Below, in pieces: positions 3 through 30,324 of a stretch of 64,000 bases of DNA. A program made the translations under genes and the position numbers. The stretch comes from an uncultured SAR86 cluster bacterium (lineage in GTDB: Bacteria; Pseudomonadota; Gammaproteobacteria; Magnimaribacterales; AG-339-G14), in the NCBI GenBank assembly GCA_902522825.1, contig CABYXE010000001.1, positions 58,843 through 122,842 of the forward strand, written 5' to 3'. Positions within the stretch are counted from its first letter, which is position 1. The number at the start of each line of letters is the position of its first letter. The notes under the pieces were generated by a model. The model saw only the letters and a program-made list of their open reading frames with translations, did not search any database and was not told where the DNA came from.

Positions 3-626
3 TTAAAATTTTTACCGGGACCAGGGCAGTGGATGGAAAGTTTCAAAAAATTTATGGCAATTCCTATGGCCCTTACAGCGCTTTGGCTAATTTGGGTTTT
101 GAGTAACCAAATAACGGAAGCTGAATTATTGAGAGTAATTATTGGTATATCTATTATTTTAGTTTTAATTTTATTAAACAATTCGAAAAATATTATTTCT
201 GTAAATAACAAATATAACTATCCTTTGATAATTATTTCTCTTATGAGCCTTATCTACTTAACGCCCAAAAATAATGACTACTTAATGGATGACCAGCTTT
301 TTTCAACAAATGAATTATACGAAAAAATAAATGAAGGGCCTGTTTTTTTAAATTTTACTGCTGATTGGTGTATCACTTGTAAAGTTAATGAGAAAGTTGC
401 TTTAGATAATAAAGTCTTCAAAGATTTTATAAATTCAAAAAATATTTCTTACATTAAAGCTGACTGGACTAATAGAAACGATGAGATTTCTTCTCTTTTA
501 GAGTCTTTTGGAAGAAGTGGTATACCCCTTTATGTTTTTTATCCCTCAAAAGATAGGCAGCCGATTATATTGCCTGAAGTTCTTACCGAAAAAATAGTTA
601 TCAAATATCTGAGTGAAGAGTATTAA
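3..626 (+). CDS. dsbD: Protein-disulfide reductase DsbD family, C-terminal part (5' end outside window)
   Basis: Frame is open from the window start (LKFLPGPGQWME, matching the DsbD LPxPGxWM motif). TM helices are followed by a thioredoxin domain with FTADWCITCK, ADWT and GIPLY. Confidence 0.85.
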   Translation, partial: LKFLPGPGQWMESFKKFMAIPMALTALWLIWVLSNQITEAELLRVIIGISIILVLILLNNSKNIISVNNKYNYPLIIISLMSLIYLTPKNNDYLMDDQLFSTNELYEKINEGPVFLNFTADWCITCKVNEKVALDNKVFKDFINSKNISYIKADWTNRNDEISSLLESFGRSGIPLYVFYPSKDRQPIILPEVLTEKIVIKYLSEEY

Positions 627-1138
627 GCAACAATATATTCTTGCCATTCAGGTGAGATAATTTTTCCAGTCACCATTTCTTGACCTCTAATTAATTCTCT
701 ATAGGACGGCTTTTCAGCTTTTGGGAGAACTTTGGGTATATTATCTGCCTTTTTTAAATTACAACTCTTGCAGGAAGTGGTTACATTTTCCCAAGAAGTA
801 ATTCCGCCCTTACTTTTAGGTATCAAGTGATCTATTGTTAATTCTTTTTTTTCAAAAACATCTTTGCAATACTGACAAGTAAACATATCTCTTAAAAATA
901 CATTTGATCTTGAAAATTTTACTTTTTTAGAAAACTTATGAAATTTTCTTAGCATGACAATGCTTGGAACTTTAAAGGAAGTTGAAGGCGATCTTACTAT
1001 CCAGTCTGGATACTCCTTAATGATTATTACATTTCTTGTAATAACTAATTTTACCGCTGTTTTCCAATCAACAGATGATAAAGGAAAGTAACTTAAAGGC
1101 TTTCCGTCTCCATTTAGAATCAAACAATCCTGTGACAT
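623..1138 (-). CDS. HNH endonuclease (McrA-like)
   Basis: RDMFTCQYC, TIDHLIPKSKGG, WENVTTSCKSCN. ATG at 1138 preferred over the TTG at 1153. Confidence 0.9.
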   Translation of the reverse strand: MSQDCLILNGDGKPLSYFPLSSVDWKTAVKLVITRNVIIIKEYPDWIVRSPSTSFKVPSIVMLRKFHKFSKKVKFSRSNVFLRDMFTCQYCKDVFEKKELTIDHLIPKSKGGITSWENVTTSCKSCNLKKADNIPKVLPKAEKPSYRELIRGQEMVTGKIISPEWQEYIVA

Positions 1139-21197: not shown

Positions 21198-24498
<3,301 letters not shown>

Positions 24499-24502
<4 letters not shown>

Positions 24503-26931
24503 ATCGCAGCTAATTTCATTGCCTCATCAACATCTACCGAAACTAGCCTGGAAACACCTGGTTCCTGCATGGTCACACCTAAAAGATGCTTGCTCTTCTC
24601 CATAGAGATTTTATTATGAGTTACAAAAATAAATTGGACTCGATCAGACATCTCCTCAACCATCGAGATAAATCTTGCCGCATTGAAATCGTCTAAAGGC
24701 GCATCAACTTCATCTAAAATGCAAAAAGGAGCTGGATTTAGGGCAAAGAAAGAGAAAACTAGCGCTATTGCTGAAAGTGCTTTTTCTCCTCCAGAAAGTT
24801 GAGATACGTTTACATTTTTTTTACCAGGAGGCATTGCTCTAAATAGAACTCCAGCTTCTAAAAGATCTTCGCTTGTAAGCTCCAAGTTTGCATGACCACC
24901 ACCAAAAAGTTTTGGAAAAAGCTCGCCTACTTTTAAGTTTAATTGATCCAAAGTATCTTTAAATTTTGTTTTTGATTCCAAATCAATTTTTTTAATTGCA
25001 TTTTGTAAAGTAGTGAGTGCTTTCTCTAATTCAGCAAACTGAGACTCTATTTCATTTTTTCTCTCTTCTTCGATTTTATATTCTTCAGCTGCTGCTAAAT
25101 TTATAGGTCCAATCCTTGATATTGATGATTCTATTTTAGAAATTTCATTGATGAGATTATCTTCGGATTCATCATTATCAAGTTGTTTTAATAATTCTTC
25201 TAAAATAAAGTCGTCTTTTTCTAATTGCTTAAAATAAATTTCTGCTTCAGATATATAGCCTTGTCTTTTTAATTTAGAGTCTTGTGAATCAGATCTAATT
25301 TTTTCAATAGAAATATCAACTTCGTGGGACTTTCTTTCGTTTTGTCTTATCTGCTCTGAAATATCAGAAAATTTTGTTCTTCTATCAGAAAGATCTCCCT
25401 CAACATTTGCTCTCGAATCTAGCAAAGGCTTCATATCTTTCTCTAATTCAGATATTGGTTGAGTTAGTTCTTCAAGCTGCTTATTGCAAGATTCAAGATT
25501 ATTATTAGTTAAATGTTCTTGCTCATCAAAAGATGCTAGGTCACTTGATATAGTTGCAAGACTAACCTTAAGATTGGTAATTTCTCCACTCAAGGATAAC
25601 AAGTCATTTTTTTGAGCTATAAATTTTTCTTCTTGATAGTCTTCTTGTTTTTCTAAAATTTCATTTAATCTAGATAACTTTTCTTCAAATTTTTCTAAAT
25701 CTACAATTATTGGGTTCAAGTCTTCACTAGTCTTAGAATCAAAATTAAGTTTAAAATTCTTAACACTATTCATTAAATTAGATTGTTCAATAAGAATTTG
25801 TTTCAAAATAAAAACTGGTGACATTGCTCCATCTAGTTTTGAAATTGAAGCGTCCATTTTTTCTAGTTGAGGTTCTTTTTCTGCAAGATCAAAATTTAGT
25901 TTTTCCATTTTTTCTAAAAAGGAAACTTTTTTATCGGCTATGTTTAATAGGGTTTCTTTGTGTGATTGTATTTCAAGATTTAGCTCATTTTTTTTCTCCT
26001 TTAGAAAAACTAATTGTTGCTCAGATTTTGAAAGGTTAGCTCCGCTAGAATAAAAATCTTCTTGAATGGAATCTATTTCTAATTGCAGCTCATTTTGTTT
26101 TGCTCTAAAGGTTTCAATTGAGGTTAATAAAGTTTGCTTTTCGCTTTGCAATTTCTCTATTTCTAGTTCTGTTTGTTTTACACTTAAATCTAATTTAGAT
26201 GCAGCTTCATTTCTTGCTTGCCAACTAAAAGCTTTCAATAATCCGTTTAATTTTTTTTCTTTCTCCTTTAAAAAATTGTATTTCTCAGCCGATTTAACTT
26301 GTTGGTTTAGTTTTACTAAAGTCCTTTCAATTTCTTCTCTTAAATCAGAAACTCTATTTAGGTTTTCTCTTGTTTTTTTAATTCTAGACTCTGTTTCTTT
26401 TTTTCTTTCCCTATAAATCGAAATACCTGCTACTTCCTCTATATAGGCCCTCAATTCTTCTGGCTTAGAACTTATTAGCTTAGTTGCCATTTCCTGTTCA
26501 ATAACAGCATAACTTCTTGGCCCTAGCCCTGTTCCTAAAAAGATATCTGTAATATCTTTTCTTCTGCATTCAGATCCATTCAAAGAATAAGTGGATTTTC
26601 CATCTAAATCTAAGACCCTTTTTACAGAGATTTCTGAATAAGAAGAGTATTCTCCACCTAATCTTCCTTGATCATTATTAAAAAGTAGTTCTACTGAAGC
26701 TCTGCTAGATGGAGCTCTTGATGAAGAGCCATTGAAAATTACATCTGCCATTGATTCTCCTCTCAAGTTTTTAGCAGAAATTTCACCCATTACCCATCTA
26801 ACCGCATCGATAATATTAGATTTACCGCACCCATTAGGGCCAACTACGCCTGACATGCTGGAGGGGAGGCTAATTTTCGTTGGATCAACGAAAGATTTAA
26901 AACCTGAAAGACTAATATTTTTTAATCGCAT
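24499..26931 (-). CDS. smc: Chromosome segregation protein Smc, unusually short (810 aa) with no recognisable hinge
   Basis: GFKSF, Walker A GPNGCGKSN, GPINLAA, signature LSGGEK, Walker B LDEVDAPLD, VTH, TMQEPGVS. Confidence 0.92.
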
Positions 26932-26968: not shown

Positions 26969-27556
26969 CTATTTACTGTTGTTATTTTGTTTTATTTCTA
27001 ATTCTTTTAACGCAGAATTCATGACTATAATTAAGGATTTTTTTTGATCTTCACTTGTTACATTTTCAAGCGCGATAGACCAGTTTTTAAGAGCTTCCTC
27101 AAACTTACTTTGACTAAACAAATAAAGCCCATTCATTGTTAAAGCTTTATGATTAGAAGGATCTAAAAATAATGACTTACTTAAAGCCTTTAAAACGTCT
27201 TTATTAAATGAAAGATTATTTAAAAGATATTGAACTTCTGCAAATGAGGCATAAAGCTCAGAATCAGCCTGACTAGGAAAATTCTGAATATAGTTTTCTA
27301 AGACTTTGTATGATTGAGCGTAATATCCATCTGCTAATAAATTCATTGCTAAAAGACTTAATTCAGAAGAGGAAATATTATTTATTTGAAGTAATTCATC
27401 AATCCTGTTGTCTAATTCAATAATATAATTTAGATCTTTTTCTGATTCATAGAATGTTTTAAATGATTGTTTGGTTAGATTGTCAAAGCCGCCGATAAAT
27501 AAGTAAACAATCAAAGTAAAGATAATCAAAGAAAACAAAAGAACCTTATTTGTCAT
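26969..27556 (-). CDS. ccmI: CcmI/CycH-like TPR protein
   Basis: TM plus TPR (LDPSNHKAL...A...W); last gene of the ccm operon; ATGA overlap with ccmH. Confidence 0.65.
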   Translation of the reverse strand: MTNKVLLFSLIIFTLIVYLFIGGFDNLTKQSFKTFYESEKDLNYIIELDNRIDELLQINNISSSELSLLAMNLLADGYYAQSYKVLENYIQNFPSQADSELYASFAEVQYLLNNLSFNKDVLKALSKSLFLDPSNHKALTMNGLYLFSQSKFEEALKNWSIALENVTSEDQKKSLIIVMNSALKELEIKQNNNSK

Positions 27557-27936
27557 TTTTTTATCAGAACCAAACAAAGCAAATATAGTGAAAATATAAT
27601 TAGAACTACCGGAAACAGGAAAAGCAAATATGAATAGTTGTTAGTGGGAGGCATATACAAAATATCATCGCCAAATTTATTCGCCAAATAAATTTTAATC
27701 TGATCATCAGTCTTATCTTCTGAGATCATTTCAAAGACTATGTTTTTCATATCTGTGGCAATGGGAGCTGACGATCCGCTGATACTCGAGCCCTCACATA
27801 AAGGACAACTTATTTCATTAGATAATGTATAAAATCTTTTTTCATGATCTAAAGAAGAAAAAGAATATAAATCTAAAGCCTCTTGATTAAACAGCGAAAG
27901 AGAAAATAAAAGAAAAAAGTATTTAAAAAAATTCAT
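27553..27936 (-). CDS. ccmH: Cytochrome c biogenesis protein CcmH
   Basis: ISCPLCEGSSISGS.APIA.D motif, FGDDILY.P. Confidence 0.9.
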   Translation of the reverse strand: MNFFKYFFLLFSLSLFNQEALDLYSFSSLDHEKRFYTLSNEISCPLCEGSSISGSSAPIATDMKNIVFEMISEDKTDDQIKIYLANKFGDDILYMPPTNNYSYLLFLFPVVLIIFSLYLLCLVLIKK

Positions 27937-28439
27937 TTTATTAATTTTATAAATTTATTTGTCCAAATATTTTCATTAACAATGCCGATATGTTTTTGAA
28001 TTATTTTATTTTCTTTATCTATTAAATAAGTTTCCGGCGCACCAGAAACTCCAATTTCCAAACCAAAATTTCCTCTGGGGTCGTATATAGTTTTCCAATA
28101 TGGATTTCCAAACTGATCAAGCCATCTAATAGCTTTTTCTTTGTCATCTTTATAATTTAATCCGAATATTTTTATTCCTTTATTTTTTAAATTCATTAAG
28201 AATCCATGCTCTAATTTGCAATTAACACACCACGTAGCCCAAACATTGATTAATTTATATTCACCTTCAATAAATGCGTCTTGATTAATAATATCTCCAG
28301 TTAGTTCTTTCATTTTAAAAGAAGGGAAACTAGAAACTTCTATTAGTTTTTCGTTGGGATTTAAAAGGGTTAAAGTAAATATAGAAAATAAGATTCCTAT
28401 AGATATAGTCGAAAATATAAATAGCCGAAATTTATTCAT
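27933..28439 (-). CDS. ccmG: Thiol:disulfide interchange protein CcmG/DsbE
   Basis: NVWATWCVNC, NYKD, GAPET. Confidence 0.92.
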   Translation of the reverse strand: MNKFRLFIFSTISIGILFSIFTLTLLNPNEKLIEVSSFPSFKMKELTGDIINQDAFIEGEYKLINVWATWCVNCKLEHGFLMNLKNKGIKIFGLNYKDDKEKAIRWLDQFGNPYWKTIYDPRGNFGLEIGVSGAPETYLIDKENKIIQKHIGIVNENIWTNKFIKLIK

Positions 28440-30324
28440 ATTTTATTCTTCTAAATACTGCCAAGAATCCTCCGATCATCATAATCAATGCGCCAATCCA
28501 AATTAATCTGACGAAGGGTTTTATTTGTATCTTTGCAATCCACTTTCCAGACTCAAGTTTTTCACTAAGACTTATGTATAAGTCCTCTTTCGGCCTTATA
28601 TAGATATCAGATTCTGTCATTACATTATTTGAAGCTGGATAAAAACTTTTTTCAGGCTTTAATAAAATTTTCTTTTGAGTTACGTTATTTTCAACTTCAA
28701 ATTGCACAACTTCAGAAAAATAATTTGAGAATTCCTCTTTACCCTCTTCAATAAGCTTAACTTTATAGTTGCTTAAATTTGTGAATTCCCCTTTTCCTAT
28801 TATTACTTCTTTGTTTTGTGAAAAAGATGAGACCACTCCAATTCCTAAGATCATAATTGCAATTCCAAAGTGTGCAGTAACCATTCCTAAATTATTAACT
28901 ACTAAATTTTTATTATTCAGATTTTTAAAAATATAAATTACTAATCCAGAAATTATTGCGGCAAACATTAAATAACTGGCAAATGAAAAAATGTCCGGAT
29001 AACTAAACAATGTATAGGTAAAAAGGAAAGTAAGTAAAAAAACTATTCCCAAGAGAAGAAGATAGTAGTTTTTTTGTTTTTTTGAATTTCCCCATGAAGT
29101 TAATATTCCATACCCTTGAAAAAAAGCTATAAAGAAAGCTATAGGAACACTTGTTAAATTAAAATAAGGAGCGCCAACAGTTATACTTTTTCCACCTGTA
29201 AAAATATCATAAATAATTGGATATATAGTGCCAAATAAAATAACAGCAGCAAGTATCAAAAGTAAGGCGTTATTAATTAATAAGAAGAACTCTTTGGAAT
29301 AAAAAGTGTAATCCGTTGTTTCTTTTGGAACTGTATCTGCCCGAAAAAAAAGATAAAAAGAGTAGATTGAAATTAAAAGCGTAATTATCAGCAAAATTAA
29401 GCCTCTTTCTGGATCAAGAGCGAAAGTATGAACAGAAGTTAAAATTCCTGATCTAACTAAGAACATACCAATAAAACTTCCAATCACAGCTAAAACTGCC
29501 AACAAGATCGTCCAATTCACAAATATATTTCTTTTATCTGTGACAATCGCAGAATGAATTAAAGCTGTTGCAATAAGCCAAGGTATTAAGGATGAATTTT
29601 CAACGGGGTCCCAAAACCACCAGCCGCCCCAACCAAGCTCATAATAAGCCCACCAACTTCCAAGCGCTATCCCAAGTGTTAGAAAACTCCAAGATAAAGT
29701 AGTCCATTTTTTTATCCTTGAAGACCAAGCGTCTTTCACTCCAATACATCTCCCAAGTGCAATGGCGAATGGAATAACTAAACCAGCGTAACCCAAATAA
29801 AGCATTGGTGGATGAATGGTAAAAGCAAAATCTTGTAATAAAGGATTCAAATCTGTTCCATTTAAAGGAGGAACTGGCAATAATCTTTCAAATGGATTTG
29901 AGGTAAAAATTGTGAATCCTGCAAAACTCATAAAAATTAACGACGTGAATCCATAAAGATAGTTTTTATCTCTAGCTGATTGATATTTCGAAAATAATGC
30001 AAATAAAATAATCCACAAAGAAAGAATTAAAATAAATAAGAGCATAGATCCTTCATGACCTCCCCACAAAGCAGATATTTTGTAATAATTTGGAAGAAAA
30101 GGATTTGAGTTACTTGCTACATAAAGCACACTAAAATCATCAAATAAAAAAGATACTTCGAGCGCAAGAAAGCTAAGAAAAACAAATCCAAATTTAAAAT
30201 AAATTAAAGTACTTAAATCGAGTATTTCTCTTTCAAAATAATAAGAAAAAGTAGCTAAGCAAAAAATAAAAGTGGCTACAGAAAAAGATGCAATAAGAAA
30301 GAAATTTCCAATTTCTGGAATCAT
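28432..30324 (-). CDS. ccmF: Cytochrome c heme lyase CcmF
   Basis: HPPMLYLGY, WAYYELGWGGWWFWDPVEN, SVHTF. Confidence 0.96.
   Translation of the reverse strand: MIPEIGNFFLIASFSVATFIFCLATFSYYFEREILDLSTLIYFKFGFVFLSFLALEVSFLFDDFSVLYVASNSNPFLPNYYKISALWGGHEGSMLLFILILSLWIILFALFSKYQSARDKNYLYGFTSLIFMSFAGFTIFTSNPFERLLPVPPLNGTDLNPLLQDFAFTIHPPMLYLGYAGLVIPFAIALGRCIGVKDAWSSRIKKWTTLSWSFLTLGIALGSWWAYYELGWGGWWFWDPVENSSLIPWLIATALIHSAIVTDKRNIFVNWTILLAVLAVIGSFIGMFLVRSGILTSVHTFALDPERGLILLIITLLISIYSFYLFFRADTVPKETTDYTFYSKEFFLLINNALLLILAAVILFGTIYPIIYDIFTGGKSITVGAPYFNLTSVPIAFFIAFFQGYGILTSWGNSKKQKNYYLLLLGIVFLLTFLFTYTLFSYPDIFSFASYLMFAAIISGLVIYIFKNLNNKNLVVNNLGMVTAHFGIAIMILGIGVVSSFSQNKEVIIGKGEFTNLSNYKVKLIEEGKEEFSNYFSEVVQFEVENNVTQKKILLKPEKSFYPASNNVMTESDIYIRPKEDLYISLSEKLESGKWIAKIQIKPFVRLIWIGALIMMIGGFLAVFRRIKYE

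Follow-up and report, generated by a model that had tools for sequence, protein, structure and literature searches.

The stretch of DNA analyzed here, called the window, is 64,000 nucleotides long and comes from an uncultured SAR86 cluster bacterium of the gammaproteobacterial order Magnimaribacterales. It carries an smc gene followed by zipA and ligA, and the protein encoded by smc is, with high confidence, a functional Smc orthologue that has no hinge. The hinge is regarded as a defining and functionally relevant part of all SMC proteins, where it is involved in dimerization and DNA binding and, in cohesin, serves as a DNA gate. In the window protein, its position is occupied by a short helical tip. 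A first-pass annotation, made from the letters alone, had described an uninterrupted open reading frame (ORF) of 810 amino acids (aa) with both halves of the ATPase head and the joint motif GPINLAA, placed at an smc-zipA-ligA locus. All the motifs that it named were found in the translated sequence, and zipA and ligA were confirmed by their Pfam domains.

The window protein scores 793.5 bits against TIGR02168, the curated bacterial Smc equivalog of NCBIfam, for which the cut-off is 567.35. This match is composed of two stretches, the first of which aligns residues 2-471 with profile positions 1-464 of 1181. Pfam SMC_N spans residues 3-794 (E 1.4e-53), and the solved head of B. subtilis Smc (5xg3_A) matches at E 1.5e-96. 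It is the single Smc-like match at E<=0.001 in the whole host genome, which comprises 30 contigs with a total of 1.11 Mb and has a completeness of 88.9%. The ABC head motifs (Walker A, Q-loop, signature, Walker B, D-loop, and H-loop) are invariant across 32 aligned sequences (alignment A1), as are the joint residues G608, I610, N611, and A614, and the column identity of the N-terminal half of the head is 0.82-1.00 within the window's own family, f1. The long antiparallel coiled coil of the Smc family is present (helices 170-367 and 432-676), with the joint near the head. The nearest relatives are gammaproteobacterial Smc proteins with 37-50% identity. The first-pass annotation had also read IEQEM in the Q-loop instead of IEQG. 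The glycine-to-glutamate change is real and limited to f1, where residue 147 is Glu in every sequence, while Asp is found at this position in two of three f2 sequences and Gly in the third, in families f3 and f4, and in the outgroups (IEQGM, IEQGI, and IEQDM forms).

SMC_hinge (PF06470) gave no Pfam match in the window protein, even at E<=1. It was not found by Pfam in one representative of each other short form, and it was not among the 25 most-matched families listed of 63 when 32 members of alignment A1 were scanned singly. A six-frame search with PF06470 matched none of the 121 genomes of the order. The same domain was matched in three of four full-length outgroups, at about residues 525-621. 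Taken alone, the Pfam negative is weak and speaks against resting the case on it, as the model is imperfectly sensitive: it missed one of the four true full-length outgroups, and the six-frame search at E<=0.01 missed the Caulobacter control. Therefore, the argument for the absence of the hinge is carried by the missing length and the all-helical fold. Four full-length Smc proteins of 1161-1169 aa from class-level relatives were used as the comparison set (MAFFT). The window protein is colinear with these outgroups up to residue ~365-384 and again from ~428. Approximately 355-359 aa of the outgroup are missing (359 against the 1169-aa outgroup), which comprise the distal N-terminal arm, the hinge, and the distal C-terminal arm; the arm loss is ~90 aa from each strand against the 1169-aa outgroup. 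Approximately 60 residues occupy the place of the lost segment. When the tip was compared with the outgroup hinge regions by hhalign, the probability was 0.5%. CXXC was looked for in the sequence and is not present, the only cysteines being C35, C122, C482, and C737. These results agree with the earlier proposals that about 350 aa (hinge plus distal arms) were lost and that the protein has neither a hinge motif nor a CXXC hook. No SMC_hinge match or hinge fold was detected in the middle region by Pfam, hhalign, or AlphaFold2.

The AlphaFold2 model of the full protein was built from the 32-sequence alignment and has a mean pLDDT of 73.5 and a pTM of 0.38, the latter as expected of a rod-shaped protein. 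In this model, residues 146-680 form helices only, with no strand, and the helices are broken at 368-371, 396-401, and 429-431. A tip-only model of residues 335-475 (pLDDT 84.8) gave an identical helical hairpin with the kink at 368-371 and the loop at 396-401. Both models agree with the helix-loop-helix that the first-pass annotation had seen at the midpoint, at residues ~368-430. A Foldseek search with the tip gave no matches at E<=0.001, just generic helical hairpins, and a search with the whole model against PDB returned SMC heads and arms only and was uninformative on the tip. The neck, defined as residues 351-380 and 431-460 directly below the tip, has a column identity of ~0.70-0.72 within f1, compared with 0.38-0.56 for the tip and 0.34-0.50 for the adjoining arm. 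Conserved tip motifs are family specific: LDGAxSP in f1, LSPxEKA in f3, and GYxFGxGE in f4.

The hinge-less form is conserved throughout the order. Of 41 genomes sampled from four families and 12 genera, 39 have a match. Complete copies measure 809-810 aa in f1 (18 relatives and the window's own), 821-827 aa in f2, 730-732 aa or, in one genus, 995 aa in f3, and 732-736 aa in f4. When the middle region (residues 300-520) was used as the query, 229 proteins were found, and 105 of the 120 listed are exactly 810 aa long; the sources of these 810-aa homologues are ENA, JGI, NCBI, Logan, and Tara assemblies. The remaining 15 measure 453-809 aa, some of them on contigs of 1.5-5 kb, and are probably mostly fragments. 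The first-pass annotation had considered that the short gene might result from an assembly collapse, which is excluded by the presence of the 810-aa form in so many independent assemblies. It had also considered that close relatives might have full-length Smc while this copy is under relaxed selection, and neither was found. By the Nei-Gojobori method, the three pairs with the least saturation have a dN/dS ratio of 0.036-0.040 over the whole gene and, by region, of 0.003-0.024 in the head, 0.043-0.069 in the arms, 0.011-0.044 in the neck, and 0.05-0.105 in the tip (381-430). For pairs with the window's own copy, which show saturation (dS 1.3-1.9), dN/dS is 0.05-0.09. The gene is under purifying selection.

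The partners of Smc are also kept in the order. The kleisin ScpA (PF02616) is present in 112 of 121 genomes and the kite protein ScpB (PF04079) in 113, of which 112 are above the cut-off. Both are present in all 55 high-quality genomes and in all 20 genera, and their genes form an adjacent pair. ParB_N was found in the window's genome (E 7e-33), and the joint is the contact site of ParB in B. subtilis Smc, according to the available part of a published study (PMC9449133). In the window's own, incomplete genome, neither ScpA nor ScpB was found, which counts against a working Smc complex there. In a genome of the same genus (G006), scpA-scpB lies between genes of 536 aa and 236 aa. In the window's genome, the 536-aa flanking gene is cut at residue ~350 where locus L128 ends (C22:4151, taken as the contig end), and the 236-aa flanking gene was not found. 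These two observations suggest that scpAB of this genome is most likely unassembled and not lost. Near the end of L128 (G000:C22:3098-4151), the scpA-flanking gene gave matches in two frames that are interrupted by stop codons; low sequence quality at a contig end is the probable cause, the other option being that the gene is broken.

Two readings would deny that the window protein is a functional Smc. Its short arms and missing hinge recall RecN or Rad50, and it could accordingly be another SMC-like ATPase (RecN, SbcC/Rad50, or MukB/MksB). This is very improbable in view of the TIGR02168 score, the Smc joint motif, the smc synteny, the grouping with gammaproteobacterial Smc, and the lack of CXXC. 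The Rad50 models reach only 42-46 bits against cut-offs of 700-1087, and the RecN model is absent among the 25 NCBIfam families listed of 31 matched. RecN or Rad50 identity was rejected on these scores, with TIGR02168 over its cut-off and Rad50 far under theirs. Alternatively, the gene could be an assembly artefact or a remnant that is decaying or no longer functional, which would be compatible with a strongly reduced and incompletely recovered genome in which ScpAB was not found. However, the length is constant to within a residue across genera, the catalytic motifs are invariant, dN/dS is close to 0.04, independent assemblies carry the 810-aa form, and ScpAB is present in every high-quality relative; hence, almost no weight is left to this explanation. 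A pseudogene or artefact was rejected on length conservation, dN/dS, and motifs, and is refuted as far as sequence data reach. The window protein is filed as an Smc orthologue without one defining domain, the hinge, that is, as a variant of Smc-ScpAB and not as a typical member.

The features of the locus are collected in Table 1. The smc, zipA, and ligA genes are tightly packed, with overlapping stop and start codons followed by a 2-nt gap. In the two outgroup loci that were checked (Alloalcanivorax and Alcanivorax), a full-length smc is likewise followed by zipA, and therefore orthology is supported by synteny. ZipA is 222 aa long in the window, compared with at least 297 aa in Alcanivorax and at least 314 aa in Alloalcanivorax before those loci end. 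Thus, ZipA also appears to have a shortened linker from its membrane anchor to its FtsZ-binding domain.

Table 1. Features of the smc locus and of the window protein (positions are those of the window; (-), reverse strand)
Feature	Residues	Window positions	Description	Basis
smc	1-810	24499..26931 (-)	810 codons + stop, ATG start, 0 internal stops	
Head, N-terminal half	1-169	26425..26931 (-)	Contains Walker A GPNGCGKS and Q-loop IEQEM	Sequence, 5xg3_A match
Walker A GPNGCGKS	31-38	26818-26841		Sequence
Q-loop IEQEM	144-148	26491-26493 (residue 147)		Sequence
N-terminal arm strand	170-367	25831..26424 (-)	Single continuous helix, pLDDT mostly 74-89	AlphaFold2
Helical tip at hinge position	368-431	25639..25830 (-)	Predicted helical hairpin	AlphaFold2 full-length and tip-only models
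Tip substructure	368-428		Kink LDGA 368-371, helix 372-395, loop 396-401, helix 402-428	AlphaFold2
C-terminal arm strand	432-676	24904..25638 (-)	Helices 432-572, 577-583, 590-607, 614-676	AlphaFold2
Joint discontinuities	573-613		Within C-terminal arm strand	AlphaFold2
Joint motif GPINLAA	608-614	25090-25110		Conserved in alignment
Head, C-terminal half	677-810	24502..24903 (-)		Sequence, invariant columns, PDB head matches
LSGGEK signature	712-717			Sequence
Walker B LDEVD	739-743			Sequence
H-loop THN	771-773			Sequence
zipA		23834..24502 (-)	222 aa; start codon overlaps smc stop codon	ZipA_C E 3.8e-13
ligA		21789..23831 (-)	680 aa, NAD-dependent DNA ligase	DNA_ligase_aden E 6.8e-96; OB, HHH, and BRCT domains
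Cytochrome c maturation cluster		26969-30324 (-)	Directly upstream of smc: ccmF/G/H (CcmF, thiol-disulfide protein (Redoxin), CcmH) and CcmH-like TPR protein	

Homodimer prediction was carried out with two copies of residues 318-482 and gave a score of 0.58 (runs 0.59, 0.58, and 0.55), compared with 0.00 for the best of three controls. In the calibration of this prediction, 20 of 30 solved homodimers and 1 of 23 solved single chains attained the pass mark; these counts hold only roughly here because a family alignment made for this analysis was supplied. The runs have at least 92% of contacts in common, and the partner pLDDT is at least 77. The predicted interface covers residues 372-430 and 433-471, which are the two tip helices (372-395 and 402-428) and their continuation along the C-terminal arm. 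The best-defined intermolecular pairs are 390 with 408/409, 379 with 419, and 376 with 422. These pairs are in the register of the intra-hairpin pairs, which suggests that the hairpins lie side by side and parallel with the heads at the same end. The predicted geometry is a parallel four-helix bundle with both heads at one end, as in the rod of Smc. Positions at the interface have a higher hydrophobicity than others (0.51 vs 0.22), and the hydrophobic ones among them are conserved in f1. This conserved hydrophobicity was rejected as support for a dimer, as an intramolecular hairpin needs the same a/d positions.

RecN is a hinge-less ATPase of the SMC superfamily that dimerizes by the end of its coiled coil, tip to tip, with the heads at opposite ends. 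The first-pass annotation had suggested that the window protein may dimerize through a new helical apex and had drawn the parallel with RecN. The controlled homodimer prediction favors such an apex. The parallel can be kept for the helical apex itself, at the level of prediction, but not for its geometry, as the two molecules are predicted to stand side by side with the heads at the same end.

Several points weigh against the tip as a dimerization element. The pairs 390-408, 379-419, and 376-422 equal those required inside one hairpin, and therefore the conserved hydrophobic positions cannot discriminate a hairpin from a bundle. The dimer score is the model's own confidence, and helical hairpins are easily laid side by side. 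The prediction covers the f1 tip alone out of the tips of four families. Within f1, conservation is lowest in the tip, and tip sequences are unrelated and unalignable between the four families. This variability, together with a hydrophobic pattern that any intramolecular hairpin requires and with intact heads and ScpA-binding regions, would also suit a hinge-less Smc without stable distal contact, in which ATP-engaged heads and a ScpA bridge join the molecules and the tip merely caps the hairpin. Such an arrangement is unlikely. The homodimer prediction lies far above its controls, the neck is more conserved than the neighboring arm and has a low dN/dS, and all functional engineered B. subtilis constructs listed in the available part of one study kept a dimerization module (PMC5344682). 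The tip could also dock another protein or DNA, with the partner giving closure or anchoring and with no self-association. The family-specific tip motifs could then track a co-evolving partner. This is less likely still: no candidate partner was seen in genomes of ~1 Mb, the smc neighborhood holds only zipA, ligA, and ccm genes, and the self-association model already passes its controls. On balance, it is somewhat more probable than not that the tip is the dimerization element.

Together with these data, tip dimerization, its geometry, and all DNA handling can be inferred as follows. Each molecule would fold back on itself, with the ATPase head and joint followed by an antiparallel coiled-coil arm that ends in the ~60-residue helical hairpin. 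The tips of two molecules would pack side by side as a parallel four-helix bundle and hold them together at the far end. Contacts would run on down the C-terminal arm strands, giving a rod of reduced length in which the two heads share one end. The ring would be closed at the heads by ScpA and ScpB, and ParB would recruit the complex via the conserved joint. ATP turnover may then drive DNA loading and loop extrusion like those of ordinary Smc-ScpAB, with a shorter arm and without the DNA-binding surface of the hinge. The whole explanation, namely a single functional Smc orthologue that has lost the hinge and ~90 residues per arm strand and forms tip-joined pairs, is considered fairly likely.

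In relatives of the class outside the order, Smc is of full length. A class-level sample comprised 61 genomes, one per family and at least 90% complete, of which 54 have a match and 52 of these are outside the order. Open frames of 1154-1441 aa were found in 50 of the 52, and the other two are cut by contig ends; when one unpublished genome (G160) is left out, this holds for 49 of 51. Of the best 150 out of 31,641 representatives from a library of 1.84 billion proteins, 145 are 1142-1188 aa long, and the five shorter ones measure 810, 827, 732, 995, and 990 aa. One locus (L088), in a record titled uncultured Pseudomonas sp., has an smc match spanning 2912 nt with a longest ORF of 660 aa. It was dropped as a further short Smc, as it is probably frameshifted or misassembled. 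A quick maximum-likelihood tree without a root was calculated from 49 rows and 721 columns (LG+G4), and many of the rows did not pass the composition test. In this tree, the 15 hinge-less rows are all found on the same side of a branch that has an SH-aLRT of 100. The simplest reading is that the hinge was lost once, in the common ancestor of the order.

The arm lengths of Smc have been studied by Buermann et al. (2017), and the following points are taken from the available part of that study (PMC5344682). Natural prokaryotic arms have length modes of 238, 341, and 515 aa, and engineered B. subtilis Smc arms are functional at 253-267, 321-373, and 407-435 aa. The arm-length period is 91 aa in the viability screen and ~99 aa for the superhelix. 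B. subtilis Smc with a Rad50 zinc hook replacing the hinge grows normally, and it was concluded that the dimerization domain's fold is irrelevant in B. subtilis. The 990-aa library representative (P0131) has SMC_hinge at 436-532 (E 1.1e-5, above the cut-off). Compared with the 1169-aa outgroup, its N-terminal arm is short by 89 residues and its C-terminal arm by 91, which equals one period as measured by Buermann et al. On the hinge-bearing side of the tree, it branches off first, adjoining the hinge-less group. P0131 exceeds the f1 protein by 180 residues, and the two rejoin the outgroup alignment at the same C-terminal arm position (786/787). P0131 may represent a stage before hinge loss, although compositional attraction between AT-rich sequences could give the same placement. 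From the lengths alone, it can be inferred that shortening of the arms by one period came first and that the hinge was removed later. By rough arithmetic, with an assumed hinge of ~174 aa, the canonical length exceeds that of the f1 arm, tip included, by about one period.

Another length variant is found in one f3 genus, where all six genomes examined (G035, G044, G059, G084, G095, and G117) have a hinge-less Smc of 994-995 aa. The 995-aa form (L033, G035:C4) corresponds to residues 1-422 of a 732-aa relative, then to 301-537, and then to 395-732. Its central 237 aa are 37% identical to residues 301-537 of the relative (E 2e-53). BLAST self-comparison of this form showed no internal repeat at E<=1e-3, whereas a more permissive search against the 732-aa relative showed the duplications. 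The repeated segments suggest that two overlapping internal duplications (~122 and ~143 aa) lengthened both arm strands. The resulting length is approximately that of canonical Smc minus the hinge (995 vs 1169 aa). It can be tentatively hypothesized that the history was stepwise and quantized, with ~90-aa arm shortening, one hinge excision at the base of the order, further trimming in two families, and arm regrowth in one genus, and that the Smc pairs are joined only by a parallel four-helix tip. This combined history is possible, though somewhat doubtful.

The window protein shares the head motifs, the joint, the antiparallel arm, the smc-zipA order, ScpAB in relatives, and ParB with canonical Smc-ScpAB of B. 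subtilis and of gammaproteobacteria, in which Smc has 1150-1190 aa. Unlike canonical Smc, it has no globular hinge, ~90 residues fewer per strand, and a ~60-residue helical hairpin at its end. Rad50/SbcC also combines the head and the antiparallel coiled coil with a small non-hinge apex, but the CXXC zinc hook belongs to Rad50 only. As far as the available part of the study shows, the engineered Mini-Smc and Smc(Zh) proteins demonstrated that the hinge is replaceable and that arms shorter by about one period (91-99 aa) can work. The natural protein combines both changes; in contrast to those constructs, which keep a known dimerization module (hinge or zinc hook), it has a plain helical tip.

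A small and very abundant cluster of "hinge-less" ocean SMC proteins without CXXC was described by Sussfeld et al. (2025, Environ Microbiome 20:65; PMC12153180), according to the available part of the text. In that part, the cluster (their cluster 9) is assigned to the class Actinomycetes, with a basal branching position relative to actinobacterial Smc; the term "SAR86" is absent from the paper. Compared by description only, and with what is available of that paper, the two have an ocean origin, SMC type (COG1196), an intact head, a coiled coil, and the lack of hinge and CXXC in common. In contrast to the Actinomycetes assignment, the window protein is gammaproteobacterial by synteny and nearest relatives, and its lineage probably differs from that of the cluster. 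A search of the literature on hinge-less SMC, SAR86, and marine bacteria found no description of the Smc of this lineage. Natural hinge-less SMC proteins had been reported before the present case, and Sussfeld et al. (2025) is the only such report found in the literature. In its essentials, the interpretation of the first-pass annotation is borne out. The distinct architecture that it proposed stands with regard to the missing hinge, but the idea is not as novel as had been assumed, given the available content of the 2025 paper.

The importance of the finding is tempered by the precedence of the 2025 paper, although the available part of that paper concerns another phylum and has no partners, synteny, or dimer model, and also by the computational nature of the present results. 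Its interest is mainly for SMC specialists. How far nature tolerates an Smc without a specialized dimerization domain has hardly been examined so far. In the present case, an entire order of highly abundant marine bacteria has retained a hinge-less Smc under strong purifying selection, together with ScpAB and ParB. The natural set of variants, with three arm lengths and four tips, could be used to test what loop extrusion minimally requires, what the hinge does in DNA handling, and the arm-length rule. The window protein is a natural counterpart of the engineered hinge-replaced and short-armed Smc and a natural test of the purpose of the hinge. If the stepwise history is true, nature would have independently repeated and extended the arm-length and hinge-replacement experiments in B. 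subtilis, and hinge loss would be a recurrent outcome of marine genome streamlining, both here and in the Actinomycetes cluster of 2025.

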